Source: Mobula hypostoma
Lineage: Eukaryota
Assembly (NCBI RefSeq): GCF_963921235.1
Contig: NC_086108.1
Location: 88,724,001-88,788,000, forward strand
Direction: 5' to 3'
DNA: 64,000 bases
Shown here: positions 345-61,396 of the stretch, piece after piece
How the letters are laid out: every line of letters starts with the position of its first letter
How positions within the stretch are numbered: position 1 is the stretch's first letter
The notes under the pieces: model-generated
Databases searched by the model: none
What the model was told of the DNA's origin: nothing
The model's input: only the letters and a program-made list of their open reading frames with translations
Translations under genes and position numbers: made by a program

Positions 345-468
345 AATCCTAATGAAGGGTCTCAGTCTGAAATGTTGACTCTTTATTCCTTTCCATAAAA
401 CTAAGCTCCTCCAGCTTTTTGTGTGTGTTACTCTGGAATTTCAGAATCTTCAAAATCTCTTGTGTCTC
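345..468 (+). mobile_element. Degenerate Penelope-type terminal repeat fragment
   Basis: ctaatgaagggtctcagtctgaaatgttgact...ctcctccagc resembles the pLTR copies elsewhere in the window. Confidence 0.55.
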
Positions 469-4100: not shown

Positions 4101-7100
4101 AAAATAGGGAGATTTTTGATTATTAGGTATAACCACAGCCATGGGGGAATGATAGATCAATTTGATCCAAGAAATCAATCCCGAGCCAAAATTAAATCTT
4201 TCCAAAACCTCAAAGAAGTAAGACCACTCCACCCTATCAAAGGCTTTCTCTGCATCAAGAGAAACAACACATTCAGATTCTTTAGATGGAGAAGAGTGAA
4301 TAATGTTTAATAATCTTCAAATGTTAAAATGTAAGTATCTATTTTTATCAAATCCAGCTTGGTCATTGGAAGTAACAGTAGGTAAAATACTCTCAAGTCT
4401 ATTAGCCAAGATCTTAGAAAGAATTTTAAAATCCACATTCAATAGAAAGATTGGTCTATAGGAAGTGCATTCAGATAAATCTTTATCCTTTTTTAGAAAT
4501 TAAAGTGTTTGAAGCTTCATAAAAAGTTTTCGGGAGAGTCCCAGAGGATATAGAATCAGTGAAAATTTGACATAAATGAGGTGTAAGTGTATCAGTGAAA
4601 GTCTTATAAAATTCCACTGTATATCCATCCGCTCCCAGAGCCTTAGCTGGTTGGAGAAAGGATATAGCCCTTGCTGTTTCCTCTTGTTTAATAGGTGCAT
4701 CTAATGTATTCATATCTTGAATAGAAATTTTAGGTATATTCAATTTTTGCAAAAATCTATTCATAAAAGTAATATTGTCTGAAAATTCAGATTTATGAAG
4801 ATTAGAGTAGAAATCCATAAATATCATTAATTTCATAAGGATCTACCATTTCAGTTCTATCAGGTCTTCGTATTTTCAGGATCTGTCTTCTAGCCATATT
4901 TGCTTTTAACTGACCAGCTAATAATTTGCCTGACTTATCTCCATGTATATAAAATTGGCTTTTGGATTTAAAAAGTTGCTGTTCAATGGGAAAAGTCAAA
5001 AGCAAATCATGCTGTGTTTAGAGTTCCCCCCTTTCCTTAAAGAGATTTTCACTAGGCATTATTGAATAAATTTTATCTATTTCTTTAATCCAATTAATAA
5101 TCAGTAAAAGCTCCGCCTTAGTTTTCCTTCTTAAACCTACTGAGTATGAAATTATCTGTCCCTTAAGAAAAGATTTCATCAAATCCGATTTTCTTAGTTT
5201 ATTTGGGACACTATGCCATTTAATTGGGACATGAGACTGTTCCTGAACAGTTTCTAACTAGCAATAGTTGCGTGAACCAGTGTGGCCGTTAGACACTACA
5301 CCATGCTTAGAGCAAGCAGTTTTTAAATAATGTTAGCTGCATGTGTTTGTGTTCATACAAAAGTGATTCTTGTCACTGATAGTTGGTGAGAAATAAGCAG
5401 CAAGACAATTTAGAACTGTTTTGCTCACTACAATTTCAAGCATTGAGGCTTGGCGATGCCAGAAATGGACAGAAGTGAGAATGAAACAATTTCACTCTTT
5501 CAGCAAGATAGGATCTATGAAGAAATTGAAGATATGGCAATCTTGAAGATTACAATGAAAATGAAGATTTGGAGGATGTAATCATCGATAGAATTGCGTG
5601 AAGGCAGTCCATTACCTGCATTAGGTCTGCACTGATTCTGTTCATTTACTGTCAATCGACTGGACACGGCAGTGTGTCAGTTATCCACTGTATTAGAGCA
5701 TGAGAGTGAAATCTGTACAGGAGAGATTATAAAGTGGAAAAAATTCACACTCTACTCTCTCAACCTTGGAAGCCTGGGTCCAGTGGTACTAATAGTTGTC
5801 ACAAACTGGGATTTCCACTGGATGCCAGTCAAGAAAAATCCCCTGAATCTTCCTCCCTTCTCCCAAATGGAGGAAATTTGAGCCTAGTTGCAACTGCATA
5901 TCTCACCAGGTTGTGTATTAATTTCATCAGACCACATGCATGTAAGCCTGTGAACAATACAGAATGGCATCCATATTAAAAGGATATGAAAGCACTAGAA
6001 GATACAAAATACATTTATTAAAATGGTGGTAGAACTGAGATTAGATCTGTGGAGAAAGGTCAAACAGGTTGTGGCTTATTTACTTTAGAAAAAGAAGTGA
6101 CTTGCAAAAGGTCTCAAGACCAAAGCAAGAAGCCATAAACTGAAGGTAGACACTAATAAATTCGACAATTATTTCAGAAGAAATCTCTATTCATTATATA
6201 GTTAGAATACAGAAACATCTACAGGGAGGAGTTGAAGCAAAGGGGAAGCCAAATAAACAAACAAATGATAAAGGAACGGAATGTTGTTTTAATACCATTA
6301 CATGAAGGTTGGAGGGGGCAGATTGGTACGAGCAGGCATATACTGGCCTCTAGGATAGAAAGGTTTGTTTGCATTTTTTAAATGTATTGCAGTACTAAAC
6401 AGTTTTCTGATTATCTGTAATTATCTGATAATCTAGTTGGAATGGCTGTGTTCTGTAAAAGATGCTCCCCAATTGTTCTATGGAAAACTAGTCTTAACAG
6501 TTTTTAAATTATTTAACTGATGTTTTCTTGATGTTCAACTTTAGATAATAATATTTACTTTCTCTTAATTAAAGTTTACCTTGTGCTCTGACACATTTAG
6601 CTAAAGGTTCCATTGCTAATTGTTTCTTTATTATCATATGAGATTCATTATAACCATTCCCGGAACATGATTAAATATCTAAGTATTCAATTATTGGTAA
6701 ATTGCCTAACAAGTGTAATAATACTATTATTATTTTTATTATTAAAGGAAGAATTCATAAACATCATCAGCAACCACTGATTTCGCAGGAGAAGGTACAT
6801 CTGCATGGTTCCCTGAAAGAACTGAAGGGTTCTCGGTCTCCAGGATACATTAAGGCTCATGGTTAGTTTCTCTCAGTTACTTTGTCTTCTGTTTTCTGTA
6901 AGGTAAAGATTCTCTGTGACTGATAATAGAATAATAATCATATAAATGAAGTTTGCCTGAGCTTTCAGATTTGATCCCAACAATATATACAGGGTTGAAA
7001 AATAGAAGTCTTAGGTATTCATGAACACATCTGGGGTATGATGGGTGTGTCCATCATAGTTATTAATTGGGCATTTAGTTTTATTACTTATTTAAGCCCA

Positions 7101-9031
7101 TCACCCCTGCTGGGGCATATACTGCTGACAGCAACTCATCAGAGTCCTCTTTCCTGGGCCAGGCTTTTAAGTTGTCCCCAGGTGTAACCCATCTTCAAAA
7201 ATCCTCACTCTACTAGGGTCTTTGGCGCTTCTGTTGGCATTTCAGCTCTTCGTTTTTATAGGATGGGGTTGCTAGCCTCACGCAAACCCTCCTTTTGCAG
7301 CCGGGCTTGGGACCGTCTATGGTGGAGTTATTTAATTTTAATGATGACTCTTTAATTTGCTATTTGATGGACAAATAATGATGAGATAATAATTGGTCAA
7401 TGCATAACAAAATTCTGAGTTGGACAATCCACACCAGGGGTGCATGAAAAGAGCTACTTTTTAATCAGGGCGGCGACCAGGATTTTGAAGGCAAAGTTTT
7501 GCGGCAGTTTTTCTAAGTTGAGGAGCGACCAATCATCAAGCGGCGGTGCATAAAAAGAGATTCGTTTTAGTCAGGTCCGCGTTCAAGAATTAAAAAGCAG
7601 AGCTTTGAGCCAGTTTTCTCTGAGTTGGACAATCCACACTAGGCGTGCGAGTAAAGAGCTACTTATTAATCAGGGCAGTGATCAAGGTTTTGAAGGCAGA
7701 GTTGGCAGCAGTTTTTTCTGAGTCGAGGAGTGACCAATCAGCAAGATGGATTCATCGGAAAAGGCCCATAAGAATAATTCAAGTGCAAGCGGAGTGGCCA
7801 TTCTTTTGGAGTGTGCCCATCTTTAGAGTGGCTTTGGCTCACCTGGTTCAGGCTTGGGTGAGACAGATTGTCTTGTAAGTTACTCTCGCTCTGTTCTTAT
7901 TTGTTCATTCCTCATTTACTAGTGCATAGTGTAATGGGAATGGCTCCAGGGGCAGTGTTTTGTACTGTATGTGGGATGTGGGAAGTCTGGGAGACGCTGA
8001 GTCTCCAAGGTAAACACATCTGCCCCAGGAGCAGGCGTTGCAGCTTCTGGGAGAATGTATTAAGGAACTGGAACTGTTGCTTGATGACCTTCAATGCATA
8101 TGGGAGAATGAGGAGGTGATAGACAGGAGCTACAAGGAGGTAGTCACTCCTCGATTGCAGGAGACAGGTAACTGAGTGACTGTCAGGAGAAGGAATGGAA
8201 TTGCACAGCCAGTGCAGAGTACACCTGTGGTCATTCCCCTCAATAATAATTGTGAAACTTTAGATAATATTGAGAAGGAATGACCTACTGGGGGGGGGGG
8301 GGGGGGCGGCCGCGGGGGTGAAGCACAACGACCGGGTCTCTGGCACTGAGTCTGGTGCTGTGGCTCAGAAGAGCAGAGAATTGAAGAGGACTGCAGTGTT
8401 GATAGGAGATCCCGTAGTCAGAGGAACAGAGACGAGGTTCTGTGGGTGCGATAGAGACATTTGGATGGTACGTTGCTTCCCTGGTGCCAAGATCAGGGAT
8501 GTCTCTGATCGTGTCCATAGCATTCTCAAGGATGAGAGCGAGCAGCCTTGGTACATATTGGCACCAATGAAATAGGTAAACAAGTTGAGGAGGTCCTGAA
8601 GAGAGATTTTAGGGAGCAAGGTAGAAAGCCGAGAAACAGAACCTTCAGGGTAGTAATCTCTGTACGTCGACGTTTCAGATGAAGGGTCTCAGCCCGAAAC
8701 GTCGACTGTACCTCTTCCTAGAGATGCTGCCTGGCCTGCTGCGTTCACCAGCAACTTTTATCTGTGTTGCTTGAAATTCCAGCATCTGCAGATTTCCTCG
8801 TGGTTACGTCACTTTATTCCCACTTTTTTCCTCCTGACTATCAGCCACTGCTTTATCCATGCTACAGTCTTTCCTGTTGTACAATGGGCTCATAGCTCAT
8901 TAAGCAGCCTCATGTATGGCAGCTTGTTAAAGTTTGAGAAGTCAATGTTCATGCCATCAGGTCTGATAAACTTTCACTAATGCCCTACCTCCCCCTCGTA
9001 CCCCATCCATTATTTATTTATATACACACAT

Positions 9032-9071
<40 letters not shown>

Positions 9072-12000
9072 TCTTCTTCCTCTGTTCCTCTCACTATACC
9101 TCTTGCCCATCCTCTGGGCTTTTCCCCCCCTCCCCCTTTTCTTTCTCCCTGGGCCTCCTGTCCCATGAACCTCTCATATCCCTTTTGCCTATCACCTATA
9201 CAGCTCTTGGCTCCATCCCTCCCCCTCCTGTTTTCTCCTATCATTGTGGATCTCCCCCTCCTCCTCCCACTTTCAAATCTCTTACTAGCTCTTCCTTCAG
9301 TTAGTCCTGACGAAGGGTCTCAGCCCGAAACGTCGACTTTACCTCTTCCTAGGAATGAAGTGAACCTTTTATGGTTGGCTGCCTGTGATCAGTGGTGTTC
9401 CACGGGAGTCTAGTTGTGACCGATTCTTTTAAAGTTATATGTCGATGATTTGGATGATGGAATTGATGGCTTTGTTGCAAAGTTTGCAGACAATATGATG
9501 ATAGGTGGAGGGGCAGGTAGTTTTGAGGAAGTAGAGAGGCTACAGAGGAACTTAGACAGATTAGGAGAATAGACAAAGAAGTGGCAGATGAAATACAGTG
9601 TCAGGAATGTGTGGTCATGCACTTTGGTGGAAGAAATGAAAGGGTTGACTATATTCCAAATGGAGAAAAAGCACAAAAAATAACAGGTGTAAAGGGACTT
9701 GAGAGACCTTGTGCTGGATTCCCTAAAAGTTAATTTGCAGGTTGAGTCTTTAGTGAGAAAGGTAAATGTGATGTTAGCATTTGTTTCAATATGACTAGAA
9801 CATAAAAGCAAGGATGTAATGTTGAGACTTTATAAAGCACTGGTGAGGCATCATTTGGATCAGATTCAGATTAATTTATTTATCATACATACCTCAAAAC
9901 ATTCACTGAGATGTATCAATTGTGTTAACTGCCAACACAATCTAAGGATGTACTGTGGGCATCCTGCAAGTGTTACCATATATTGTGGCGCCAACATACA
10001 GTAGCAGGCTCACAATGCTCAGCATAACAACAGAGGACACACCAAACAGAACACAGCAAGTAACAGAATAACAACAGCAAAGCAAGTTGCTTTCCTCCCT
10101 CCCACCCACACATCGACATTCCTCCAAACCCAGGACAAGACTCCAGTCCTTCAGTCTCAAGTCTTCCGGTATCGGGCTTCAACTTCTGGACTTCTGATCA
10201 ACATTTGAGCTTCGCTCTTCGGTACTGATCCCCGGACAAGTTGATGATGGAACTCCGAACTCCAGGACACTAACTCCGAGCTCGCCGACTCACTGGAACT
10301 CTTGCCTCCTGCTGAGACGGACATCTAATCCCAGGACACAACTGACCTGGGACAGCCCAAAATCCACACGTGTCCTTCATCACCTATCCACATCACTAGT
10401 CCTCGAGCACGATTCAATATGGTGTCGTTCACGATTTCCATTTTCCTCTCCGTACTTGACTGCAGAGTTGAAGTGCTTTGCACTGATCCCTGGTTTTTGG
10501 ATTCACTAAGATTCCATCATGTAAGTTTGGTGTTGAGAGAAGTGTGATTATTTTCTCTGGTGTATTAGAGAGCTGCTGTTGCCAATATATATATTCCAGC
10601 ACTTAACATCACGTCAACTGAACCAAGTTGACTGGACATTGGTGATATAGGAGCAAACTGAAAGCTACATGGAGTCAGTGTTTGAAGTAATGGATGACTT
10701 ATTCAAAAAAAATTCTGGTGTGCACCAGGAGCCCAGTCAAAGCTGATCTACCTGAGCATCAATTTGGTATAGCTTTTCCATTCTCAGTTGACGAGATTCC
10801 CAGTAAAACTACATTTTAATAACAGGATAATGGCTATAGGAACACTTAATTATGCAACAGGCTAGGTCCTGATTTCAGAATAAAATAATTATCCATAGGT
10901 CTAACAGCAAATCCAGTTTTCTATTACAAAAGTGGTTGCACACTATAACATAACTAGTGTAATTCCTGAAACTTTGGTGTCATCACTACTGTATTCCTTG
11001 TCTCTACTTCAAGGCTTTGTCTGCAGATCCCTTTTATTATACTAGCATAATCCACATCGCTTGTAATTAGGCCTCATCATCTTTCCCTTACAACCAGTGG
11101 TATTTTAATCTGAATTTGAAAAACAACACAATTTTCGGATTTAACCACAAAATTTTTGGAATATTTTACTAATGACAGACCAGAATGACAAATTTATCTA
11201 TCACCTCCCAGTTTGTTTGCCTTCCCCTCTCCTTGCCTTCTTATCATGGCTTCTTCCCCCTTCCTTTCCAGTCCTGATGAAGGGTCTTGGTCTGAAACAT
11301 TGACTGGTTTTTCCTCTTTATCGGTGCTGCCTGACTTGCTGAGTTCTTCCAGCATTTTGTGTGTGTTGTTCACAGGCTTGTAATGTTCAGTAAATTACTG
11401 AAGATTCCTGGGCAATGGTACACGAAATATTGAGTCTCTTGATAGTTTAATTTGATAAGACCTTTCAGATTAAATTCTTGTGGCAATAATAAGTTCATTT
11501 TTTATTTATTCTTCTTAGGATCATTAATGTTCATTGCATGGGTGACAACAGCCAACACTGGTGTTATCGTAGCTCGATTCTTTAAATCTGTCTGGCCATC
11601 TACCACAGTGTTTGGGAAAAAGATCTGGTTTCTGGTATGTGGTTAATGTTGCTTCATTTCGTTAGCCTTGGTTGATCACAAATGTTTTAGTTTCTGGGAA
11701 CTCAGCATCACCTGGAAGGCATCTGAGGAGCGTTGATTGTCCATAAGGATCACATCAGTATGTGAATCACTAATGTGAATGTGGAAAGAAAAATCAGATA
11801 GTTTCTGTAACTGTTAGGCTGTCTTGCAGGGATTTCCCCATCAAGGCACTACTCTTTATGCTTGGCTGATAAAGTTCAAAATTTATCCCTATCGTATTTA
11901 AGAGACTGAAATACCTTTCCTTTTGCATGTACCTGTGTGACCACGAGTCTGTGTGTCTGCGACTTTGTGTGCGTGCATGCGTTTGTGATGATGGATTTTT

Positions 12001-15000
12001 TTATGGCTTTTTACAAGGCACAGAGCGAGAGAGAGAGACTGTGTGGTGCGCCACTCCCCACACAGACATTTTCGCAGCATTTTCCCTTTGTTTTACGAGG
12101 TCGAGTTGCGGTCTCAACACTCAACCTGGCATGGATGGAAAGCATGCTCGGGGGCGGACCCGACTAGTTTCGAACCCGGGAACCTCCGCTCCCAGGTCTG
12201 GTGCCGATGTTGTTCCGCCACCAGCTGGCCCAAGAGACTGAAATTTCTATAAGAAGTTGGACTATGAATTCACTTCTGATGCATCTGATTTATAGATGCC
12301 AGGTCTGTGACTTTTCCATCCTGGGCTCCACTGAAAATCTCTATGAACATGATATACCTAATACATCTGTAATTATTAATCTAGTGGCTGTGTGAAGTGA
12401 AATAAGAAAGTTTGCAACACACGTGAACAGCTGAGAGTTTTGAAAGTGTCAGTATTTCACCACTCCTATCTGTGCACCTGCAGCAAACCTTGCACTGTAG
12501 ACTTTCCATGATAATATTTGATTCTAAGATGTAGAGTTTGATTGTTTAGCATGCAAGCAAGCAGCTGAAAAGAAGCACCCTACCGATTCATGGAAGTGTG
12601 TAAAATTAAGGTTTAGATGATCTGTTCTTTTTATAAATCTCAACACCTATGTCAGGATGCTGTTCATCGACTATAACTCAGCACTTAACACCATCTTGGT
12701 TGATAATTTACAGAACCTGGGCCTCTGTACCTCCCTCTGCAATTGGATCCTCGATTTCCTAACTGGAAGACTTCAATCTGTATAGATTGGTGATAACATC
12801 TCCTCGTCACTGCTGATCAACACTGGTGCACCTCAGGGGTGTGTGCTTAGCCCACTGCTCTACTCTCTCTATACCCATGATTGTGTGGCTAGGCATAGCT
12901 CAAATACCATCTATAAATTTGCTGATGATACAACCATTGCCACTTTTCTGCTGTACATTTCCCCAAGAACATCCGTTACCAATTTATGCTTCCAAGTTCC
13001 TGCCTAATAGTTTCATATTTCCCCTTACTCCAATTAAACGCTTTCCTAACTTGTCTGTTCCTATCCCTCTCCAATGCTATGATAAAGGAGATAGAATTAT
13101 GATCACTATCTCCAAAATGCTCTCCCACTGAGAGACCTGACACCTGACCATGTTCATTTCCTAATACCAGATCAAGTACAGCCTCTCCTCTTGTAGGCTT
13201 ATCTACATATTGTGTCAGGGAACCTTCCTGAACACACATAACAAGCTTCGACCCATCTAAACCCCTTACTCTAGGAAGATACCAATCAATTTTAGTGAAA
13301 TTAAAATCTCCCACCATGATAACCCTGTTATTATTAGACCTTTCCAGAATCTGTCTCCCTATCGGCTCCTTGATGTTTCTGTTACTATTGGGTGATGTAT
13401 AAAAAACACCCAGTAAAGTTATTGACCCCTACCTGTTCCTAACTTCCACACTGAGTGACTCCATAGACAATCCCTTCATGACTCCCTCCTTTTCTGCAGC
13501 CATGACACTATATCTGATCAGCTGTACCATGCCCCCACCCCTTTTGCCTCCTTCCCTGTCCTTTCGGAAACATCTAAAGCTTGGCACTCTAAGTAGCCAT
13601 TCCTGCCCTTGAGCCATCCAAATCTCTGTAATGACCACAACATCATAGCTCCAAGTACTGATCCATGCTCTAAGCTCAAACGCTTTGTTCATGATGCTTC
13701 TTGCACTAAAATAGGCACATCTCAAACCATCATTCTGAGCATATCCCTTCTCTATCACCTGCCTTTCCTCTCTCTCACACTGTCTACAGGCTTTCTCTAT
13801 TTGTGAGCCAACCGCCCTTTCCTCTGTCTCTTCAGTTTGGTTCCCACTCCCACCAGCAATTCTAGTTTAAACTCGCCCCAAATAGCCATAGCAAACCTTC
13901 CTGCCAGTATATTGGTCCCCCTTGGATTCAAGTGCCACCTGTCCTTTTTGTACAGGTCACACCTGCCCCAAAAGAGGTCCGAATGATCCAAAAATCTGAA
14001 TCTCTGCTCCCTGCTCCAATCCCTCAGCAGTCGTAATCTGATAAAATAGCTCAGTCCAATACATGTTGAGTGATGACATGACTGATCTACCATCAAACTG
14101 CTGTTGCCCTGGAACCAAACCCAACTTGTGTTAAAGAGAAAATGAAACAAGTAGGAGGAGATTCAGGGCAAAGGTTTGCAAAAAGATAAGTTTTAGCTGT
14201 AATGTGTCAAGTTTCTAATGTAAACATTTCTCCAAGCCAAAGACCATATTGCCCTGGCAAAGATGTTCTGGCAAAGAAGCATAGAAACATAACATGAAGC
14301 AGCAATCATAATATGACAGAATTCACCCTGCAGTTTGAGAGGGAGATGATAAAGTCAGATATATCATTATTACAGTGGGATGAAAAGAATTACAGAGGCA
14401 TGACAGATGAGCTGGCCAAGGTTGAATGGAAGGGGACACTAGCAGGGATAATGGCAGAACAACAAAGGCTGGAGTTTATGGAGACAATTCAGAAGATGCA
14501 GGATAGATATGTCCCAAGGATGAAGAAGTAAAGGGAGCATGAGGCAACTGTGGCTGACAAGGAAAATCAAAAACAGCAGAAAAGCAAAGGAGAAGGCATA
14601 CAAAATAGCAAAAAAATCCTTGAGAAGTTATGATTGGGAAGCTTTTAAAAACTAACAGAAGGCAACTAAAAAGCCATAGGGAGAGAAAACATGAAATATG
14701 AAGGGAAGCTAGCCAATAATATTGTGGTAAACCATATATATATATATGTTGTAACTGTGTTACCTGTCTGGACACGCCCCTCTGCTGACTGCTCCTGTGG
14801 CTCCTCCCACAGATCCCTGAATAAAGGTGATTTTGTCATTGCTCCTCCCTCAGTCCAAAACAGATACTCAGCATGGACGTTGGTCCATTTACTGTTAATA
14901 AAATCCTTTTCAGTACTCTACTTCCAGTCTTTTGGAGTAATTGATAGTGCATCAAATTTAAAAGAGGATACCAATTTTTTTTTTTCAAATATATAAAGAG

Positions 15001-18000
15001 TAAAAGTGAGGTGAGAGTGGATGAATTTCCAGCATCTGCAGAATTCCTGTTGTTTGCGTTTAAATTCACTACTGTGAAGCCTCTTCCGGTGATGCCTACA
15101 CCAAAGAAGTTTAGATCCGCTCTTCGACGGGAGTTCAGTGAAACCATCTCTCACTGCTCAAATCCCTTACTCACTCTTCCTTCAGTTAGTCCTGACGAAG
15201 GGTCTCGGCCTGAAACGTCGACTGCACCTCTTCCTATAGATGCTGCTTGGCCTGCTGCGTTCACCAGCAACTTTGATGTATGTTGCTTGAATTTCCAGCA
15301 TCTGCAGAATTCCTTTTGTTTGTGAGAGTGGATATTGGACCATTGGAAAATGACATTGGAAAAGTAGTAATGGGGGACAAACAAATGGCAGATGAAATTA
15401 ATAAGTATTTTGTGCAGTCTTCACTGTGGAAGACACTAACAGTATGACAGAAATTCAAGAATGTTAGGGGGCAGAAGTGAGCATTATTGCTATTATTAAG
15501 GAGAAGGTGCTTGGGAAGATGAAGGGTCTCAATGTACATATGTCACCTGGACCAGATGAACTATACCCCTGTGTTCTTAAAGAGGTGGCTGAAGAGATTG
15601 TGGAGGTATTAGTAATGATCTTTCAAGAATCAATAGATTCTGGCATGGTTCTGGAGGACTGGAAAATTGCAAATGTCACTCCACTCTTTAAGAAGGGAGA
15701 GAGGCAGAAGAAAGGAAACTATAGGCCAGTTAGTCTGACCTCAATGGTTGGGAAGATGTTGGATTCCTCTATCAAGGATGAGGTTTCAGACTACATGGAG
15801 CTGCATGATAAAATAGGTCAAAGTTTCGTAAGGGAAAATATTGCCTGACAAATCTATTGGAATTCTTTAAGGAAGTAACAGGCAAGATAGATACAGGAGA
15901 GTCGGTGGATGTTGTTTACTTGGATTTTCAGAAGGGCATTTGGCAAGGTACCACACATGAGATTGCTTAGCAAGATAAGAACCCAAGGTATTACGGGAAA
16001 GATACTTGCATGGATAGAAGATTGGCTGACTGGCAGGATGGATAGAGTGGGGGAAAAAGGGGGTCTTTTCTAGTTGGCTGCTAGTGACTAGTGGTGTTCT
16101 GATATGGATGGTGTTGGGACCACTACTTTTCACGTTATTTGTCAATGATTTTGGTGACTGAATTGATGGCTTTGTGGCCGAGATTGTGGACCATACAAAG
16201 ATAGGTCAAGTGGCCTGTAGTATTGAGGAAGAAGGGAGTCTGCTGAAGGACTGAGACAGAGTGAGAATGGGCAAAGAAGAGCCAGATGGAATATAGTGTC
16301 CAAAAGTGTCTGGTCATGCACTTTGGTAGAGGGAATAAAGGTGAAGACTATTTTCTAAGTGGGGAGAAAATTCAAAATTCAGAGGTGCAAAGGGATGTGG
16401 AAGTCCTTGTGCAGGATTCGTAAAGATTAACTTGCAGATTGAGTAGGTAGTAAGAATCAAAAAGGCACAACAGCATCTTTATTTCCTGCGGAGCATCAAG
16501 AAAGCTCACCTCTGTCCCAGGATACTGACGGACTTTTACCACTGTACCATTGAGAGCATGCTCACCAACTGCATCTCAGTGTGGTATGGCAATTGTCCCG
16601 TATTGGACCACAAAGCTCTCCAGCGTGTGGTGAAAACTGCCCAGCGGATTATCGGCACCCAATTTCCCACCATTGAGAACATCTACCATAAACGCTGCCT
16701 GGGCAGGGCGAAAAGCATTATCAAGGATGCATCTCACCCTAACCATGGACTTTTTACTCTCCTCCCATCCGGTAGGCGCTACAGGAGCCTCTGCTCCCAC
16801 ACCAGTGGGCACAGGGAGAGCTTCTTCCCTGAGGCTGTGACCCTGCTGAACCTCACATCACAGCGCTGAGCAGTATTGCATCCATATTGTACTGTCTCAG
16901 TACTTTTATATTTGTGTGCTGTAGCACTTACTTTTTATTCACAGTTATTTTGTAAATAACACTATTCTTTGCATCTCTGGTCAGATGCTAACTGCATTTC
17001 ATTGGCTTTGTATCTGTACTCGGCACAATGACAATAAAGTTGAATCTAGTCTAATCTAATCTAAATTCAATGTTAACATTCATTTTAAGAGGACCAGAAT
17101 AGAAGAGAAAGGATGTAATGCTGAGGCTTTATAAGGCATTGATCAGACTGCACCTTGAACACTTGGAGTACTGTGAGCAGTTTTCAGCCCAATATCTAAG
17201 AAAAAAATGTGCTGACATTGGAGCAGGTCCAGAGGAGATTCATGAGAATGATTTTGAGAATGAAAGGGTTAATGTATGAGGAGTGTTTGATGGCTCTGGG
17301 CCTGTATTTGCTGGAGTTTAGAAGAATGAGGGGCTATCTCATTGAAATCTATCAAATATTAAAAGTTCTGGATTGAATGGATGTTTGTCACGGGAGGATG
17401 TTTCCTGTAATGAATGAGTCTAGGATGAGATGACACAGCCTCAGGCTAGAGGGACAGCCATTTAGAACAGATGAGAATCTGTAGATTTCATTCCCACAGG
17501 CAGCTATGGAGGCCAAGTAATTGAGTATATTTCAACTGTAGGTTGATAGGTGCTTGATTAGTTAGGGTGTCAAAAATTATGGGGAGAATGCAGGAGATTG
17601 GGGTTGAGAGGGATAATAAATCAGCTGTGATGAATGGCAGAGAGGACTTGATGGGCCGAATGACCTAACTTGCTCCTGTGTCTTCTGGTCTTATGATTGG
17701 GGTCTACATTCACATAACCTGAGTTTTAATGTTAATTGCATGTGTCAAACCCAATACAAATTCAGCAATAAGCCCAGAATTCAAATTGCTGAATTCTCTC
17801 GAATGATCATGATAATGCAGCAGGCAGTGCCACCTTGTGGTTATGCTTTTACAGTTTTCAGAAATATAATACAGTTTTCTATCATAATTCTTTCAGGCTA
17901 GAGAAGTAGGGGCTCAGAGTTTGACTTTGCTGTTCAATAAGATTATACCCAAGCCTTCGTTACTTTTATTTCCAGTATGATCCTGAAAATATTTCTCTAA

Positions 18001-21000
18001 GTGTCTAAAATACTATCAGTTTCAGTCTTGATTTCATTCTGTCTGGCTCCATACAGGTTTAGTACACCTGATTTGTATCTTGCCTATAAATACACGCAGA
18101 CAGGCAGTATGGATTTAAAAGAATTTAGTCATTAGTCTGAGATTGGCTCAGGCTATATGTGTTAATGTTAGCTATTATGAATGGCAAAGCAAGACTTAAA
18201 CTGCTTCTCCAGATTATCCATTCCTGTGGGATAACCCATCTCTTCAGGCAGCCTCTGCCATTTGACTTGCAAACATTCTGGGTTATGAATAGTTCTCAGA
18301 AATGGAACCCTGCTGTAACCTGAGGAGAATCATGAGCCATTTGCAGAGGAGAATCCCAAAGATTCAGAATACAGTGGAGTCTGGTTAATTGGGCCATCAG
18401 TTAATTCAACAGCCGTTTATTTGGGACGTCTAAAGTAACAAAAACTAAAAATCAAGAAAAAGGCTGGGATTTCCTTCATTTATTTGGGACAATATGCCAT
18501 TTAATTGGGACAAGATCCTGTTGCCAAATAGTTTCTATCTAGCATCAGTCGCATGCATTTACATGGCCATTAGACACCACGCCGTGCTTAGAGTGATCAG
18601 TTTTTAAATAGAATCAGAGTGTAGTTTTGGTTCAAAAAGCAGTGATTTGGAATTGTTTTGTTCACCATGGTTTCAAGCCTTCTGGCTTAGAGATGTCAGA
18701 AACATCCGGAAGTGGAAATGAAATAGTTTCACTGCTTGAACAAGTTAAGAACTGCAAAGAATTTGAAGATGTTGACAATCATCTTGAATGTTACAATGAA
18801 AATTAAGATTCAGAGGATACAATCTGCAATTATCTAAAGCATTTTATGAAGAGATTCCATTATATATACTCGGTGTGTACACTGACTTTGTTCATTTGCA
18901 GTCAATCAAAAGAGCATGTTGGATGAAATCTTCAGTGGATAACTATTAGGAATTAATGCACAGATTTATAATACTGTAGAGGTATTGATAATGTTCTAAT
19001 TGGTTCTTTTTAAAATTAAAATACATAAAATGTTACTCAGTAAACTAGTTTTTTTATAGCTTTTAATTATTTCCATGAAACTTCAGCTAATTGGATCAGC
19101 CACTTAAATGAGCCAAAATGCACGGCGCTGATGTGTCGCAATTAATAGTATCCATTGAACTCATACCTTGTTCTTTATCCTGAAAGTTTTAGCCCTTGAA
19201 AAGCCAAGCATCTCCCTACTGTGTATCAATTCATAATGTTATCAAATATGACAATGGTTCTGGGTCTAAGAACTTGATCCATCAAGTTGAATTTCTCAAT
19301 AGACTGCAGCAATTTAATCAATCTGTAAAATGCTTGTCTCCCTGTTTCATAAAGTGATTTACTCTTAATAAAAATTATTATTTTTTGTAACAAAGCTTAT
19401 TAAAGAGGAATCAATACCTGAGCAACAGTTTTTAAAAAAAAACATTTTATACCTAATCCTATTTCCACTAGTTTGAGTTTCCCAGTAAAATGAGTCTCAT
19501 TGATAAGAACAAAAGGTTTACTGATTTGGGTTGTATCATTAGTGCATTCAAAATGCATATATATCACTGTATACAGAATAGTGAGATATATTGACTGTTC
19601 AGGTGTTGACATTTCATTGTGTTGCATATAATTGTTGATACCATACACCATGTTCTGGACACACAGCTGTGCACTTAGACAGTGAGGGAATTAATCTAGA
19701 GTCATTGTTTTTAAAGTGCATGTGCTCCATTATCGTTTCAGTATCCTGTCTTGTTTTAGGTGCACAGCATTCTGATGATGACCACAGTATTGTTTACCTG
19801 CATTGGTTTTATTCTTCCTTTTATTTACAGAGGAGGCTGGAACCAGGTAAGTCGGCATTTACTGTTTTGGTAGTAAGTGGAAAATAGTATTTTTCTTTAC
19901 TTTTCGATGCTAAACTAGCATAATGCATGAACAGTCATAATTCAGTCAATTGTTCATTACAAGTCCATGAACATACCAATATTTTCTATGCCTTTGTACA
20001 CTTACACACACATAGAAGCTCTATTTTGCATGCTCTAAAGTTATGTTTTAATGTGGTAAAGGAGATAAGTGTGGTATATATCACATCAGGAGATATCTGG
20101 GCAGATGCCAAAGAGAATTTTTTTAAGGAGAGGAGGAGACAGGGTGTCGAGATAGGAATCAGAGTTTTTTAATTCTTATTAGCTCTTTAGTTTTAAGTAT
20201 ATCCATCTAGTTGATTTATTTTATGGTTCGGACTTTATACAGATGTATTGTTCTGATTTGAACTTCTGGCTTGGTACTCTGTTTTCCTAATGTAGCCCTC
20301 AATCCTCCCTTGTCTAAAGCCATTGATTCCTTGCACTAGTATATCATTTGCTATCTCTCCAAAGTAGAAGTGACCAGGAATATTTTCACCTAATTGCTTG
20401 AATGAACCCACAGAAGGCCAACATTTGTCTTGTTTTGATTAAGGATTTATGTGGTAGACCCAGCCAATGATTGTAAATAGTTGGGGTCTGGCTGCTGTGG
20501 GGAAAGGAGATCAAAGGCTGGGTTGGGGTTAGAGGACATGCTAAGGGCTTGGTGCCTAGAGTCAGGAATGGATTGTGGACCAAGGCCTAAACATCTGGGA
20601 TCACAGCTCTGGAAATTGCAATAAGGTATTGTCCTTTGCAGACAGGCTTCTTATCTTATTGTGCAAGCAATCTTGGACATCTTTTCCTAAGAACCAATAT
20701 AGTTTGGCTGACTCAGGGCAAGCCAATATTACCATGGACAAAATAACAGTGATATTATGCCCATTTTATGTGTGTAGAAAATCTCTAAAGCATGCTTCGG
20801 ATATTAGTAGCGGACATCTCTACTTTAGTCTTGCCCAATATCGTCCATGGAATATAGAGAATTCTGTGACCTCACTAAGCAAATACCATTGCAGTGTTCA
20901 GTGAAGTCACATAAGTTTCATTAAGAGAATTTATGGGAATCTTTACGAAAGGAGCAATTGAAGCAATCTGTAAAATGCTAGTCTCACTGAATTTCACGTG

Positions 21001-30243: not shown

Positions 30244-32399
30244 TGTAATGTGGATCAAAAGTAATGTTATTAAAAAGTAACCTCAAATTAATAGTGATTC
30301 AATGTGTTTTTTAAAATTGTTTTGTAAGTGAACTTGTCCTATTAAATTAGCAATTTAATGGACTTTAAAAAAAGTTTCCTTTTCCAACTCAGCATAATTT
30401 GAACTAGTATATATTGAGTTTGAACAATTGTATCGATAATTTTTACATCTATTGCTGTGTGTATTGCATTCATGATGCCACCTTGATTTTTAATTCTTAG
30501 TCCAAGGAGTTGAATTTTAATATTTGTGAATTATGGAAACTGTGTTTTCTAGTTTGATCGATGTGATTGTATTTTAACTTTATAGTGTTAGTTGAAGATA
30601 TACACAATTCAGAGAAAAAAATTCTCTTAGACCATCATCATTTCTGTATGCATCTTTTAAACCGGATTCTCAGAATATTATGCCGCAGCGCAAGTCTTTC
30701 CAACATTGTAGTGAATTTGTAGACACATAAACACTACATATCAATGAATTTTTGGTAGCAAAACTGCAAAACAGGATAAAGGCTGCCAGATACAATCATT
30801 AATGTAGAAATATTAAATAGTAATGTTTCATATCATTAGAGATTGCACTCTACAAAAGTACATAAAAAGAACCCATGCACAGATTACATTTAATAATAAA
30901 ATAATACCTTAAGTACAAAACAGGTCAAACAGCCATGAAACTGAACATATTACCTAATTGTTCTCTTTCAGATGTTGATCAATGCTTTTACTTTTGTTAT
31001 CCATACATTCATAATTTTTATCAGCATCTTGTTCCAAATGTGTTTCTTATTCAAAAGGGTAATATATATATATACAAAATTTGGGTGAAGTATGGTCAAA
31101 GTGTTCTGTTCTGATCACATATTATGCTCCACTGAATAATATTTCTTAAGGGAATTCAAAGCCAAACCACCATTTAAAACTATGTTAGACCCCAATGCAT
31201 CTCAGATGACATTATTTCATTGCAAAATATTTTAGGTAATCTAAAACTGTATCATTGCCTTAAGATTGCCAATGATCTTTCAGATAAAATATGAGACCTC
31301 AAATAATAGTTTTGCACCTCCACCGTCCACCCCCATGCTCCCCATCTTGTCCAGCCGAACCCAACTGCCAGTCTCATGCAGCTATTGTTTTCTGACATGC
31401 TTATGAAACGATTGACACAAGGGCGACTGCTTATCCTAGAAATCTGGAGCAACACACACAAAATACTAGAGAAACTCAGATGTGCAATTGTGTGCAAAGG
31501 AAATTGAGACCCTTTCAGAGGTCTCAGCCCAAAATGTGAACTGGTCAATTCTCTCTGCAGATGCACCCTGACCTGCTGAGTTCCTGCATCATTTTGTGCA
31601 TTTTGCTTATGAAGTTCTTTTTGATTTTGTAGTTGCTGGCACATCTAGCAATCTCTAGGTTCAGTGCCAGGGCATTCTTGTGATGAGTTCTTATTGATCT
31701 TGTGCCCTGCAGACAAATGATATATTGTTAGTGCATCTACAGAGGCTCATCCTGCACCAATTGCTTTAATGGAGGAATTCAACTGAAAGGTTCCAAGTTA
31801 TTGCAGATACCATAAAAGATTACAGCTGGAAAAGTGACAGGTCATAGCAGAGGGTGGCCGTACTTATACCTGGTGATCTTGAGGAAATATAACGGAGAGC
31901 ATTTGGTGTCAGATTTAATACAACTCATCTGCAATAATCTTCAGTTTTTATGGCAGAAAAACAAAAATACATAGGTAGATCCAAAATAAGAGTAACAATA
32001 ACATTATTGTTGAACAACGTAAATCAAGAAAGGTTTCAAAGAAGGGAACAGTTTTCCACTGAACTCCTAAAGAAAGAATGGAAGGAGGTTTAGGTTTCAA
32101 CTTACAATTAAATAATAATAAACTCCCCTAAATGCCTCAATGATTTTTTTCTCTTTTATCTGTAAATTAATGTCAATTTTGTGAATTTTGTCGGTTCATT
32201 CACTTTGCTTTAAGAATATTGTGCATGGCTTTTAAAATGCTCATATTGCCCACTGACAAATCCCATGAGTCTGTGAGTTATACTGGGCGGTGAAACAAGC
32301 TGGAAGAATAAAATACACACTGTAAATTCCCAGCAAAAAAATAGTTGTCCACTGTTGCATGAAAAAAATGAAGAATTTGTTAAAGAAATAATTACAAAG

Positions 32400-33420
32400 T
32401 TTGAACATAGATTATAGAATAATACTGCTAATACAGGCCTTTTGGCCCATGGTGTTATGCCAATCTACTCCATGATTAATCTAACCCCTCTCTCTTATAC
32501 AGCCTATAAACCTCCATTTCCCTTACACCTATTTGTCTATCTAAGAGTCTTTAAAAGGCCCCTACCGCAACCCCAGCAGTCCATTCCAAGCACCTACCAC
32601 TTTCTGTGTAAAATAACCTAGTTCTGATATCTCCCTAAACTTTCTTCCACTCACCATATACAGATGTCCTCTAGTATTGTCGGTGCCACCATGTGAAAGG
32701 GACACAGCACTGTAGAGCAGTAGTGAACACAGTTGGATGGAACTGAAAAGGATGTGAAAGGAAATGTAATGGAATAGATGGACCTAGGAGTGCATAGTTT
32801 GTTAAAAGCAGCATCACGTGGTGGTGTAAAAAGCACATAGGACACTGCCATCATCAGTCAAGGCACTGAGTAGGGAGCTGGGACATTATGTTGCAACTAA
32901 GTAAGGAATTGATGAGGCCACACTTGGAGAACTGTGTAAAGTTTTATTCACCCTGTCTGGGAAAAACATGTTTAAACTGGAAAGAGTGTTGAAAATATTT
33001 ACCAGGACTAGGGGGCCAGAGGCATAGGAAGAAGTTGGAAAGTTTATGCCTTTAAATTTTTAGAAATGTTTAAAATTAAAAGGGGCATAGATAAGATGGA
33101 TGGTAGCAGTCTTGTCCCCATTGAACTCCAAAACTAGTGGGCATTGGTATAGGGTGAGAGGGGAAAGATCTGAATGGGACCTAAGGGATAACCCTCTCAT
33201 GTTGAGGGCAGTGAGTATATGGAATGAGTTGCCAGAGGAAGTGGTTGAGGCATGTACAATAATATGTTTCATGAAGCACTTGGATAGGGACATGGAGAGG
33301 CAAGATTTAGAGGGATATGGGATGAACTTAGGAAATTGGGTCTAACTGGGTGAGCATTGTGATCAGCATAGATTTGTTGGGCTAAAGGCCCTATATCTGT
33401 GCTATACTGCTCTGTGACTC
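32400..33420. mobile_element. Two decayed CR1 3' ends (- at ~32400-32700, + at ~32720-33420)
   Basis: VSIWNELPEEVVEA; 3' tails. Confidence 0.7.
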
Positions 33421-52735: not shown

Positions 52736-53614
52736 AAACACGAGGAAATCTGCAGATGCTGGAATTTCAAGCAACACACATAAAAGTTGCTGGTGAATGC
52801 AGCAGGCCAGGCAGCATCTCTAGGAAGAGGTACGTCCTGACGTTTCGGGCTGAGACCCTTTGTCAGGACTAACTGAAGGAAGAGCTAGTAAGAGATTTGA
52901 AAGTGGGAGGGGGAGCGGGAGATCCGAAATGATAGGAGAAGACAGGAGGGGGAGGGATGGAGCCAAGAGCTAGACAGTTGATTGGCAAAAGGGATATGAG
53001 AGGATCATGGGACAGGAGGCCTAGGGAGAAAGAAAAGGGGGAGGGGGGAAAAACCCAGAGGATGCACAAGGGGTATAGTGAGAAGGACGGAGGGAGAAAA
53101 AGGAGAGAGAGAAAAAGAATGTGTGTATATAAATAAATAATGGATGGGGTATGAGGGGGAGGTGGGGCTAGCCTCCAACCTGATGGCATAAACATTGACT
53201 TCTCAAACTTCCTTTAATGCCCCACCTCCCCCTCGTACTCCATCCGTTATTTATTTATATACACACATTCTTTTTCTCTCTCTCTCCTTTTTCTCCCTCT
53301 GTTCCCCTCACTATACCCCTTGCCCATCCTCTGGGTTCCCCCCCTCCCCCTTTTCTTTCTCCCTAGGCCTCCTGTCCCATGATCCTCTCATATCCCTTTT
53401 GCCAATCAACTGTCCAGCTCTTGGCTCCATCCCTCCCCCTCCTGTCTTCTCCTATCATTTTGGATCTCCCCCTCCCCCTCCCACTTTCAAATCTTTTACT
53501 AGCTCTTCTTTCAGTTAGTCCTGACGAAGGGTCTCGGCCTGAAACGTCAACTGTACCTCTTCCTAGAGATGCTGCCTGGCCTGCTGCATTCACCAGCAAC
53601 TTTTATGTGTGTTG
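52736..53614. mobile_element. Head-to-head inverted pair of Penelope pLTRs with TSD, inserted into another repeat (~52361-53765)
   Basis: ~400-bp inverted arms; TAAGGAAGATC at 52723-52733 and 53615-53625. Confidence 0.88.
53517..53552 (+). ncRNA. Minimal hammerhead motif (core intact, one stem I mismatch)
   Basis: AGUC-CUGACGA-AGGGUCUCGGCCU-GAAA-CGUC^AACU. Confidence 0.65.
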
Positions 53615-54400: not shown

Positions 54401-54974
54401 CTCAGTTCTTGTTTTCTGTTTTACTGGGACAGGCTTTGGCTGGCTCCATTCTTACTTGTCAAAGCTCTTCCTGTCGATCTGTGATAGCACATTCAGACAG
54501 TTATAGGGTCTTTCCTCATGGTTGTATCACAGTGCACATTCAATAGTTAACCTCAGGGATGGCTGGAAATCTAAAATATTATTGTAAGATATGCAGGATT
54601 TAAACTCGTAGACAAGATGGCGTGTCACTCTAATCTGCAGAAATCTACCTTCTCCAGTGTGGTGGAAAATATACATACAGCCGCAAATGTACACACCTAA
54701 GATTTTGTAGATGCAGAAATTCCAGAGCAACACACAAAAAATGCTGGAGGAATTCAGCAGGTCAGGGAGCATCAATGGAGAGAAATAAATGGTCAACGTT
54801 TTGGGCCAAGACAATTCATCAGGATAGTTCTGATAAAAGTTCTCAGTACAGATGTACGTGCACCATTGCCTCCAGTATTAATAATGACAGAGATGCTTCA
54901 GACCCAAAATTAACCGCTGCCAAATAGTTAACTTTCCTTTGCCCACTATGGTGTGAGCTTGGACATCTAAGTTG

Positions 54975-57639: not shown

Positions 57640-58170
57640 TGACTGACATGATGAGACCAAACACGGGCTGAAGGAGCAGCACCTCATATTCTGACTGGGT
57701 AGTCTCCACTTAACGGTATGAACAATGATTTCTCTAACTTCCGGCAATTTCTCCCCCTTCTTTCTCTATTTTGCCATTCCCCATTCTGGTTACCCTTTTA
57801 CCTCTTTTCTTCTCGTCACCTGCCCATTCACCTAACTCTGGTTCTCCATCTCCTTTCATTCTTCAATGGTCCACTGTCTCTCAAATAAAATTCCTTCTTT
57901 TTCATCCCTTTACCTTTTCCACCTATCCCTTCCCATCTTTTCACTTTGTTCCCCCTCACTTGGTTTCACCTATGACCTACCAGCTTGCATGCCTTCTCCT
58001 TTCCCCATCTTCCTCTTCTGGCTTCGTCCCCCTTCTTTTCCCGTCCTGATAAATGAAGCCCAAAACATCAACTGTTTATTCCCCTCCATAGATGTTGCCT
58101 GATTTGCTGAGTTCCTCCAGTATTTCGTGTGTGTTGCTCAAGATTTCCAGCATCTGCAGAATCTCTTGCA
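57640..58170 (+). mobile_element. Older Penelope 3' end (GIY-YIG tail plus pLTR)
   Basis: LKEQHLIF*LGSL..GMN; pyrimidine-rich pLTR with a decayed hammerhead. Confidence 0.7.
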
Positions 58171-58180
58171 TTTAATAATA

Positions 58181-61142
58181 TCAAGCAACACACATCAAAG
58201 TTGCTGGTGAACGCAGCAGGCCAGGCAGCATCTCTAGGAAGAGGTACAGTCGACATTTCGGGCTGAGACCCTTTGTCAGGACTAACTGAAGGAAGAGCTA
58301 GTAAGAGATTTGAAAGTGGGAGGGGGAGGGGGAGATGCAAAATGATAGGAGAAGACAGGAGGGGGAGGGATGGAGCCAAGAGCTGGACAGTTGATTGGCA
58401 AAAGGGATATGAGAGGATCATGGGACAGGAGGCCTAGGGAGAAAGAAAGGGGGGAGGGGGGAAGAACTCAGAGGATGGGCAAGGGGTATAGTCAGATGGA
58501 CAGAGGGAGAAGAAGGAGAGAAAGAAAAAGAATGTGTGTATATAAATAAATAATGGATGGGGTACGAGGGGGAGGTGGGGCATTAGCAGAACTTTGAGAA
58601 GTCACTGTTCATGCCATCAGGTTGGAGGCTACCCAGACGGAATATAAGGTGTTGTTCCTCTAACCTGAGTGTGGCTTCATCTTTACAGTAGAGGAGGCTG
58701 TGGATAGACATATCAGAATGGGAATGGGACGTGGAATTAAAATGTGTGGCCACTGGGAGATCCTGCTTTCTCTGGTGTACAGAGCATAGATGTTCAGCGA
58801 AACAATCTCCCAGTCTGTGTTGGGTCTTGCCAATATATAGAACAGGGGTCCCCAACCTTTATCGCACTGCAGACTGTTTCATATTGACAACCTTCTTGCA
58901 GACTGGCCGACCGGCCGGTGGGGGGAGGAGGGGTAGGGTTGCCAACAGACAAGAGTAGCAGTCAAAACGTTGCGTTTACCCCGTGAAAGACTACAATGAC
59001 CATGAAGCCTTGCGCGGGCACCAATACGCAAATGCCGATTTTTTTCTGCTTATTGTTTTTGGCAATTCTGTTCGGCGGGGGGGGGGGGTGTTAATCACTA
59101 CCGCAATATAGGTGACAAGTGGCTAATACACTCAATTTCATTTCTCAAAGGGTTTATCTAACGAATTTAATATTAAACACACAGCGCATATTTTTTCTCG
59201 CATGAATATAGCGATAAGTCAATTATCAGGGGAGGACAGGGGAGTTTGAAGTAAGTGTTGAACGAACTTCCAATAGAAGTGGTAGAGGCAGGTTCGATAT
59301 TATCATTTAATGAAAAATTGGGTAGGTATATGGACAGGAAAGGAATGGAGGGTTATGGGCTGAGTGCAGGTCGGTGGGACAAGGTGAGAGTAGCGTTTGG
59401 CACGGACTAGAAGGGCCGAGATGGCCTGTTTCCATGCTGTAATTGTTTTATGGTTATATAAGTCAATAGCATCATAACATTTTAAGTAACGTTTGGATAT
59501 TAAACACACAGCACATATTTTCCCCGTATGAACATATAAAATCATTGCAACACACCAATATCGCTGAATCAGTGGGAGCGCTGGGCTTGTTTTCCTGCAA
59601 CAAGGTGGTCCTCTCGAGGGGTGATGGGAGACAGCGATACTCGAACGGGGTTCCTCATGTCCAGTCTATTCCGCAATTTAGTTTTCGTTGCATTCATTGC
59701 AGAGATATGTTGGAATGTTGAAAATGGAAGCAACGTCTGCAGTGCTTTCGTGGCTATCTCAGGATAGTCAGCCTCGACTTTGATCCGGAATGCCGGCAGA
59801 GATGTTATGTCGAACATACTTTTTAGCCCGCCGTCATTTGCAAGCTCGAGGAGTTGATCTCCTTCCCGCGCTGACATGGATGACGCGCAGGTCATGACCT
59901 CGCGTGTGTTCAAGCTCAACAGTGGCCGTGACAGGGAATGAGGGAAGGTGCAGCTGACTCCTACCGCCAAATCATATTGTTCCCTCATGGCCCGGTAGCA
60001 CATGCCTTGCGGCCTGGTACCAGTCCGCGGCCCGGTGGTTGGGGACCGCTGATATAGAAGGCTATATCGGGAGCACTGGACGCAGTACATCACCCCAGCC
60101 GACTCACAGGTGAAGTGTCGCCTCACCTAGAAGGACTGTCTGGGGCCCTGAATGGTGGTGAGGGAGGAAGTGTAAGGGCATGTGTAGCACTTGTTCCACT
60201 TACGAGGATAAGTGCCAGGAGGGAGATCGGTGGGGAGGGATGGGGGGGACGAATGGACAAGGGAGTCGTGTAGGGAGTGATCCCTGCGGAATGCAGAGAG
60301 AGGGGGGGAGGGAAAGATGTGCTTAGTGGTGGGATCATGTTGGAGGTGGCGGAAGTTACGGAGAATAATATGTTGGACCCGGAGGCTGGGGGGGTGGTAG
60401 GTGAGGACAAGGGGAACCCTATTCCTAGTGGGGTGGCGGGAGGATGGAGTGACAGCAGATGTGCGTGAAATGGGGAAGATGCGTTTGAGAGCAGAGTTGA
60501 TGGTGAAGGAAGGGAAGTCCCTTTCTTTAAAAAAGGAGGACACCTCCCTTGTCCTGGAATGAAAAGCCTCATCCTGAGAGCAGATGCAGCGGAGACGGAG
60601 GAATTGCGAGAAGGGGATGGCATTTTTGCAAGTGACAGGGTGAGAGGAGGAATAGTCCAGATAGCTGTGAGAGTCAGTAGACTTATAGTAGACATCAATA
60701 GGTAAACTGTCTCCAGAGGTAGAGACAGAAAGATCTAGAAAGGGGAAGGAGGTGTCAGAAACGGACCAGGTAAACTTGAGGGCAGGGTGAAAGTTGGAGG
60801 CAAAGTTAATGAAGTCAACGAACTCAGCATGCGTGCAGGAAGCAGCGCCAATGCAGTCGTCGATGTAGTGAAGGAAAAGTGGGGGACAGATACCAGAACA
60901 GGTTTGGAACATAGATTGTTCCACAAAGAAAACAAAAAGGCAGGCATAGGTAGTACCCATGCGGGTGCCCATAGCTACACCTTTAGTTTGGAGGAAGTGG
61001 GAGGAGCCAAAGGAGAAATTATTAAGAATAAGGACTAATTCCGCTAGACGGAGCAGAGTGGTGGTAGAGGGGAACTGGGTAGGTCTGGAATCCAAAAAGA
61101 AGCAGAAAGCTTTGAGACCTTCCTGATGGGGGATGGAAGTAT
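58181..61142 (-). mobile_element. Penelope-like retroelement: RT + GIY-YIG endonuclease + pLTR, 5'-truncated
   Basis: GVAMGTRMG, LHYIDD and YYKSTDSHSYL (60127-61095); GVMYCVQC...LLY|IGKTQHRLGDCFAEH; RLEEQHLIFRLGSLQPDGMN. Confidence 0.93.
58843..60051 (-). mobile_element. hAT (Charlie/Buster-like) non-autonomous transposon inside the PLE endonuclease
   Basis: TIRs CAGGGGTCCCCAACC / CAGCGGTCCCCAACC; 8-bp TSD ATATAGAA; dimerization-domain remnant YPEIATKALQTLLPF...KTKLRNRL. Confidence 0.92.
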
Positions 61143-61396
61143 ATAGTATAATAAAATCATCTCCTTTTTAAAATTAGCACCCAATTACCCATACACTTTT
61201 AATAAATGTATGAGTGAATTCCAAATCACTCTTCTTTCATACAATACTTTGTAGAGAAGGGTAGTAGCTTTTCAGCAAAAAAGCATATGTTTTAACGCTG
61301 TTGACATTCTTTTGATCTGTAGTCATTTTCTAATATGAAGGTCAATGCTCAAACAGCTAATGCAAATGTGAAAAAAATACAGTATTGCCAACTTAC

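Follow-up and report, generated by a model that had tools for sequence, protein, structure and literature searches.

Minimal hammerhead ribozyme motifs of an abundant Penelope-like element in the genome of the ray Mobula hypostoma, including sense copies in FRRS1 introns

Penelope-like elements (PLEs) are known to carry minimal hammerhead ribozyme motifs (min-HHRs), of which a single copy does not cleave and dimers, even adjacent ones, cleave at low levels only (PMC4209133). In the Anolis element Poseidon PAc the motif cleaves only together with the element's protein, ribozyme mutants still insert, and reads terminating at the cut are lacking (Frangieh et al. 2024, PMC11167929). About 9,000 min-HHRs have been counted in Xenopus tropicalis and about 4,000 in the coelacanth (PMC4209133), and 126,247 canonical motifs in the axolotl (PMC7229834), whose genome measures 28.21 Gb (bioRxiv 10.64898/2026.07.22.740005). 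A search of supplementary file 2 of PMC4209133 found no cartilaginous fish, a literature search across listings and the openings of abstracts yielded no study of shark or ray PLE hammerheads, and the same retrozyme preprint covers one chondrichthyan genome. Here we analyse a 64,000-nt stretch of the Mobula hypostoma genome (the window; NC_086108.1, 88,724,001 to 88,788,000) together with further copies of its hammerhead motif elsewhere in the assembly. It is very probable, in our assessment, that the motif at 9303 is a minimal hammerhead from the pseudo-LTR (pLTR) of a very abundant PLE encoding reverse transcriptase (RT) and a GIY-YIG endonuclease, likely of the Neptune clade, and that its copies in FRRS1 are likely neutral debris which leaves the host RNA uncut.

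The motif at 9303-9338 consists of stem I (AGUC/GACU), the CUGACGA core box, an extra A between positions 9 and 10.1, stem II (GGGU/GCCC) closing a four-base CUCA loop, the GAAA box and C-G-U-C, where G10.1 pairs with C11.1 at 9303 and with U11.1 at 15188, and where the 15.2/16.2 palindrome is ACGU, without a helix III of its own. It agrees with the published min-HHR consensus in its CUGANGA and GAAA core and NUH triplet (PMC4209133 Fig. S3), and further shares with that class (PMC4209133) the CUGANGA-H core, the extra base before 10.1, G10.1, the GAAA-C-G-U-H palindrome, the 4-bp stem I, the pyrimidine-rich 5' flank, and the occurrence of one motif per pLTR and mostly as solo copies. It differs by a short, 4-bp stem II and by a near-uniform sequence where the published class comprises many families. 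Judged by its sequence, the ray motif is a member of this known class and would work likewise. Non-LTR retrozymes (PMC7229834; bioRxiv 10.64898/2026.07.22.740005) are also type-I, PLE-related and very numerous, but they form tandem arrays of canonical motifs, whereas the ray copies are dispersed PLE stumps with minimal motifs; no tandem motif array, a retrozyme feature, was found among the window copies or in window positions 1-30000.

An ungapped scan of both strands recovers 10 copies at ≤13 mismatches in the window, as against none in three mononucleotide shuffles scanned on one strand only, and an eleventh copy, carrying a deletion, lies at 58043 (Table 1). The original prediction had named intact core boxes at 9303, 15188 and 53517 and decayed copies near 345, 8672, 11270 and 58043 on the plus strand and 52835, 54791 and 58248 on the minus strand, all of which are borne out here, and a further decayed copy lies at 31507. 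U occupies position 11.1 at both 15188 and 53517, the latter with a stem I mismatch adjoining the cut site, and the minus-strand copy at 58248-58283 (G8>A) sits inside the 3' part of a broken PLE. Among the neighbours of 9303, the end-piece at 8678 keeps the GUC and the 3' half of stem I intact plus the full tail, with an inverted piece directly upstream that hides the GUC in a predicted hairpin; the match of the 9303 fragment to the element copy L023 stops 17 nt past the cut site. The 15188 copy belongs to an insertion bracketed by 12-nt direct repeats (15011-15022 and 15322-15333), in which ~140 nt from the start of the PLE frame are fused to the pLTR end and tail; as a side observation, this insertion (15011-15333) resembles the copy of an internally deleted 266-nt unit.

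Table 1. Hammerhead motif copies, PLE pieces and FRRS1 exons in the window
Feature	Position	Strand	Remarks
Decayed motif (G5>A)	345..380	+	
FRRS1 exon 5' of the intron holding 8672, 9303 and 11270	6748..6861	+	tblastn, AG/GT ends
PLE end-piece truncated inside the core	8678..8809	+	5' end at -26
Short PLE piece in inverted orientation, 5' side of the 9303 fragment	8930..8962	-	
PLE 3' UTR/pLTR fragment with the 9303 motif	8969..9351	+	blastn to L023, 80% over 384 nt
Minimal type-I hammerhead, G10.1-C11.1 form	9303..9338	+	predicted cut after C9334
Decayed motif, older subfamily	11270..11305	+	palindrome broken, weak stem II
FRRS1 exon between 9303 and 15188	11519..11634	+	tblastn, AG/GT ends
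Short PLE insertion	15022..15321	+	ORF 5' piece (15022-15159) fused to pLTR end and tail
Core-intact motif, G10.1-U11.1 form	15188..15223	+	predicted cut after C15219
FRRS1 exon 3' of the intron holding 15188	19760..19846	+	tblastn, AG/GT ends
Heavily decayed motif	31507..31542	+	window scan
PLE end-piece, decayed motif at 52835-52870	52736..53172	-	head-to-head with the 53166-53614 piece
PLE end-piece, core-intact motif at 53517-53552	53166..53614	+	stem I mismatch; outside FRRS1
Decayed motif, older subfamily	54791..54826	-	
Decayed motif with internal deletion, older subfamily	58043..58073	+	
3' part of broken PLE	58181..58842	-	GIY-YIG end, 3' UTR, tail
RT part of the same 5'-truncated PLE as 58181..58842	60052..61146	-	93% to L023

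Could the end of a repeat merely look like a hammerhead? The Rfam search proposed with the original prediction returned no hammerhead family among 14 matches at E ≤ 5 in the window (miRNA and snoRNA matches at 53070-53320 were rejected, being traced to the head-to-head PLE pieces there), a loose pattern found 14 matches in the window where 3 of 100 shuffles had as many and is marginal by itself, and the stem I/II covariation put forward at the same time did not appear, with at most one compensatory double change per stem pair among 149 copies. Because the subfamilies are too alike in their stems, however, being near-identical there, the missing covariation does not refute the fold. Against a chance resemblance, every item of the published consensus is present, at the expected place in both pLTRs, and the core pattern has 88,988 matches genome-wide (25.6 per Mb) versus 134 for the reversed control; we find such a resemblance barely credible. 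The exact 36-mer alone occurs 4,891 times, and of 31,854 matches to a looser pattern aimed at unrelated motif families, the first 100 nearly all belong to this PLE family. The ~89,000 core-pattern copies in the ray stand against the ~9,000 and ~4,000 min-HHRs noted above, a comparison that, like that with the axolotl, is rough since different descriptors were used.

The window itself contains a broken, 5'-truncated PLE on the minus strand (60052-61146 and 58181-58842), whose RT yields 138,223 first-look candidates genome-wide, 117 of them scored. A ~1.2-kb insertion at ~58843-60051 divides it between RT and GIY-YIG; the frame within the insertion has no Pfam match and resembles a DNA-transposon fragment. 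All 12 fetched loci with long ORFs carry the motif ~300-400 nt past the ORF, and in L023 motifs at 7322-7349 and 3806-3833 flank a frame of 1,043 codons that begins ~60 nt downstream of the motif and its cut site. Two direct pLTRs, 3,516 nt apart and each containing the motif, can be recognized in L023 along with an inverted copy upstream, and the presence of the motif in both pLTRs is also seen in L025. The consensus described above and this element anatomy both agree with the original prediction of a minimal type-I hammerhead with a palindromic ACGU helix III that is spread by PLEs.

In Pfam the L023 frame matches RVT_1 followed by GIY-YIG (E 3.8e-5 and 1.1e-3, both below the curated cut-offs), and by eye the frames of L023-L030 contain a Cys-rich linker, C-x4-C-x2-C. 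A Cys-rich, Zn-finger-like linker between RT and EN is a Neptune feature found also in Nematis (PMC8557442), and linker and domain order together make a Neptune-type source element likely. With the Neptune-clade EN+ PLEs (PMC8557442) it has in common a single frame of RT, Cys-rich linker and GIY-YIG, as well as pLTRs, inverted 5' copies, an optional 30-40-nt tail and heavy 5' truncation, and it differs from them by its very high copy number. A PDB sequence search with the PLE ORF gave nothing at E ≤ 1, and a comparison of L023 with the assembled contigs of 4 of the 23 public runs shows its presence only.

We sampled 1.6 Mb lying between same-strand Laminin_G_2 matches on four contigs, presumed from these matches to be intronic and to belong to giant genes that we assume to be neurexin- and CNTNAP-like. 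This sample has 189 copies at ≤10 mismatches, 38 with an inverted partner within 120 nt, as against none in one shuffled 400-kb block. Tail sequence defines four groups of 65, 65, 23 and 6 copies, with 30 falling in none; the groups have a common 36-mer and differing flanks, and their motif varies at N7, loop II, 11.1 and 17, some of which variation may be CpG decay. In the youngest subfamily U11.1 occurs in 50 of 65 copies, so in the latest active masters stem II closed with a G-U pair; an alternative A10.1-U11.1 register was rejected as less stable than G10.1-U11.1 (-4.6 vs. -6.0). For decay we considered 149 of the 189 copies, the other 40 having a missing or changed 5' stem I. CpG sites are changed at rates of 23-32% in the core and 25-28% in the loop, and non-CpG sites in 79/1341 core versus 168/1639 non-core cases (by base, p=0.04 for T and 0.12-0.13 for A, C and G). 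The better-kept non-CpG core fits selection on the masters, though it could also reflect weak selection on the copies, and at the level of these sequences the pattern fits active masters under selection with copies that would decay neutrally.

The ends of inserted copies bear directly on what the ribozyme does for the element. Among 78 young, tail-anchored copies from the 1.6-Mb sample and the window region, 3' ends cluster at +65 to +71 (25/78) and at +100 to +103 (29/78) past the cut site, in agreement with the anole PLE, for which two internal start sites and an optional tail have been shown (PMC11167929). A 5' end at the cut (0 or -1) is seen in only 2 of the 78, while 74 extend further 5' than -1 and 36 end in a pile-up at -13 to -37, with a rate ratio of 4.5 over -38 to -139 (p=3e-7); per base, the 5'-end rate is 2.55% at -13 to -37, 0.42% at 0 to -12, 1.14% at -38 to -62 and 0.32% beyond. 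Genome-wide counts of nested patterns, extended twice by 8 nt, fall from 12,393 to 8,881 to 7,856 copies, a loss of 28% over -29 to -36 and of 11.5% over -37 to -44, where the comparison is approximate in that the latter control segment includes a subfamily variant. With so few ends at the cut and most copies crossing it, uncut RNA is likely the usual template for PLE copying. Poseidon PAc likewise has two end sites ~35 nt apart past the hammerhead and copies that cross the cut site, and differs in belonging to another clade, in an ORF that starts inside the hammerhead where the ray frame begins past the cut, and in having had its activity measured (PMC11167929).

A natural control for this mapping lies in the FRRS1 intron that also contains 9303, where we observed a Twister-P1-like ribozyme at ~7100-7334 on the minus strand, antisense to the gene (a match to Rfam RF03160 at 33 bits and E 0.0028, under the gathering threshold). 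It heads a dispersed element of ~240 nt with relatives at L200-L213 (of 3,755 candidates, 40 were scored and gave 41 matches), and in 12 of 13 pattern matches the element starts at AACT, the twister cut site, directly after unrelated flank, with a target duplication often adjoining that start. End mapping can therefore reveal ribozyme-made ends, the copies of the twister-headed element starting at the cut site as do the Perere-3 twister variants (PMC8501958). Its 3' tail is presumably RTE-like, and the element may be a twister-headed SINE.

Together, these ends lead us to argue that the inserted copy is defined not by cleavage but by something at the 5' edge of the motif. As in the anole element, the PLE protein would, by analogy, start reverse transcription internally, at two sites in the tail, with uncut RNA as its template. 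In about half of the young copies the 5' end falls inside the motif, and this accounts for the frequency of short stumps that carry it. Either many of the template RNAs start at the 5' edge of the motif, in which case copying of the 5' pLTR would run out after 100-140 nt, or hairpins at that edge may stall the enzyme; an upstream hairpin covering ~-47 to -18 is predicted in the young subfamily and is lost in RNAs that start at -37 or later. The ribozyme itself would be a weak cutter, acting on RNA of the element alone and given a partner motif or the element's protein, whereas lone intronic copies are predicted to adopt inactive hairpin folds and to decay afterwards by CpG mutation.

That copy ends ignore the cut site could also mean that cutting has been lost altogether in this lineage and that the motif survives only as a structural or protein-binding signal, such as one close to the RNA start or to a 3' splice site. 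The insertion of anole ribozyme mutants and the missing reads at the anole cut (PMC11167929) point the same way, as do U11.1 in 50 of 65 copies of the youngest subfamily, the upstream hairpin predicted to hide the core, and a pyrimidine tract with CAG before stem I in all groups, like the intron end of Drosophila Penelope (PMC4209133). Yet all catalytic positions are kept across subfamilies with diverged flanks, G10.1-U11.1 is present in published PLE motifs (PMC4209133), and the anole motif does cut when its protein is present (PMC11167929), and we therefore regard the loss of cutting as unlikely. In every subfamily the tract and CAG directly precede stem I (e.g., 9288-9302) and, with a branch-point-like word beside them in the young family, resemble a 3' splice site; on this resemblance, sense copies could provide host introns with cryptic acceptors. 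That this CAG ends a spliced intron is not supported: the 5' ends form a broad zone and not one peak, and no matching joint is among the 15 joints listed (there are 356 more).

Five of the window copies lie within FRRS1. Pfam found only DOMON, in 1 of 8 single FRRS1 exons, and the gene was confirmed by homologue search instead: one exon frame retrieved 13 proteins of the FRRS1 family; all 11 that are named come from cartilaginous fishes, and the best match (94%) is from a stingray, whose FRRS1 protein gave 13 plus-strand exon matches by tblastn, from -18364 to 29120 in window coordinates. This exon mapping agrees with the earlier placement of sense copies in introns of a plus-strand FRRS1. The intron at 6862-11518 contains the copies at 8672, 9303 and 11270, the next one (11635-19759) that at 15188, and an earlier intron that at 345, whereas the stop lies near 29870 and the remaining window copies, including 53517, beyond it. 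We also observed three direct repeats of ~100 nt at 7414-7723 (+) in an FRRS1 intron and, at 33419-36112 (-), an 897-codon frame with a weak AKAP2_C match, ~48 kb downstream of same-strand paralemmin-family exons (88808010-88833181, minus strand), a PALM-AKAP2-like arrangement convergent with FRRS1.

The original prediction further held that 9303 and 15188 lie in the same FRRS1 pre-mRNA and might pair to cleave it. They do share that pre-mRNA, but are 5.9 kb apart in different introns with the exon at 11519-11634 between them. Each of the two retains its core and its ACGU palindrome, and a complete dimer between them can be drawn; alternatively, 9303 might pair with its nearest possible partner, 8672, which lies 631 nt off in the same intron and has lost its core but kept its GUC half, and which the 9303 core could cut. 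In nearest-neighbor predictions, which omit the core's noncanonical contacts and proteins and thus rank folds without measuring activity, inactive folds are favored throughout: each monomer prefers, over the open form, a rod in which G5-G8 pair with 15.2-17 (-11.9 vs. -7.9 kcal/mol at 9303 and -10.0 vs. -6.0 kcal/mol at 15188), the active 9303-15188 dimer reaches -12.1 kcal/mol, two separate monomers -21.9 and the best inactive dimer -27.4, half-dimers reach -8.9 or worse against -20 to -22 for monomers, and the inverted piece of 8672 folds with it into a hairpin that leaves no base of its GUC unpaired. All five FRRS1 copies are sense, as would suit such pairing, though with a two-sided chance of ~0.06 this orientation points away from harm. 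Sampled introns show no sense depletion either: core-intact copies number 37 sense and 39 antisense, fully intact ones 15 and 16, and broken ones 53 and 60, so that sense intronic copies show no sign of harm in the sample, where a sense share of core-intact copies with a 95% CI of 0.37-0.60 excludes only strong depletion. Published motifs, moreover, are poor cutters even as adjacent dimers (PMC4209133). Pairing of intronic sense copies that cuts FRRS1 pre-mRNA enough to matter is thus, in our judgement, highly improbable.

The ~89,000 near-identical, core-intact motifs with one common ACGU palindrome raise a further reading, in which RNA or protein of the element acts in trans as partner or chaperone and host pre-mRNAs such as that of FRRS1 are cut at intronic GUCs. 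If true, this would constitute a genome-wide, transposon-driven layer of RNA cleavage in rays, switched on when the element is expressed; we deem it highly improbable. Control of FRRS1 or of other host genes would be of far greater consequence, and the evidence speaks against it.

Neutral debris of an abundant PLE thus remains our preferred reading of the FRRS1 copies. What the ray genome offers is an extension of the known pairing of ribozyme and transposon to a very high density, ~26 core-pattern copies per Mb, and with it an extensive natural archive of the points at which PLE copying begins and ends, copy density and mapped ends being the useful additions to the known class. This young, near-intact family would be a good system for asking what defines PLE copies.
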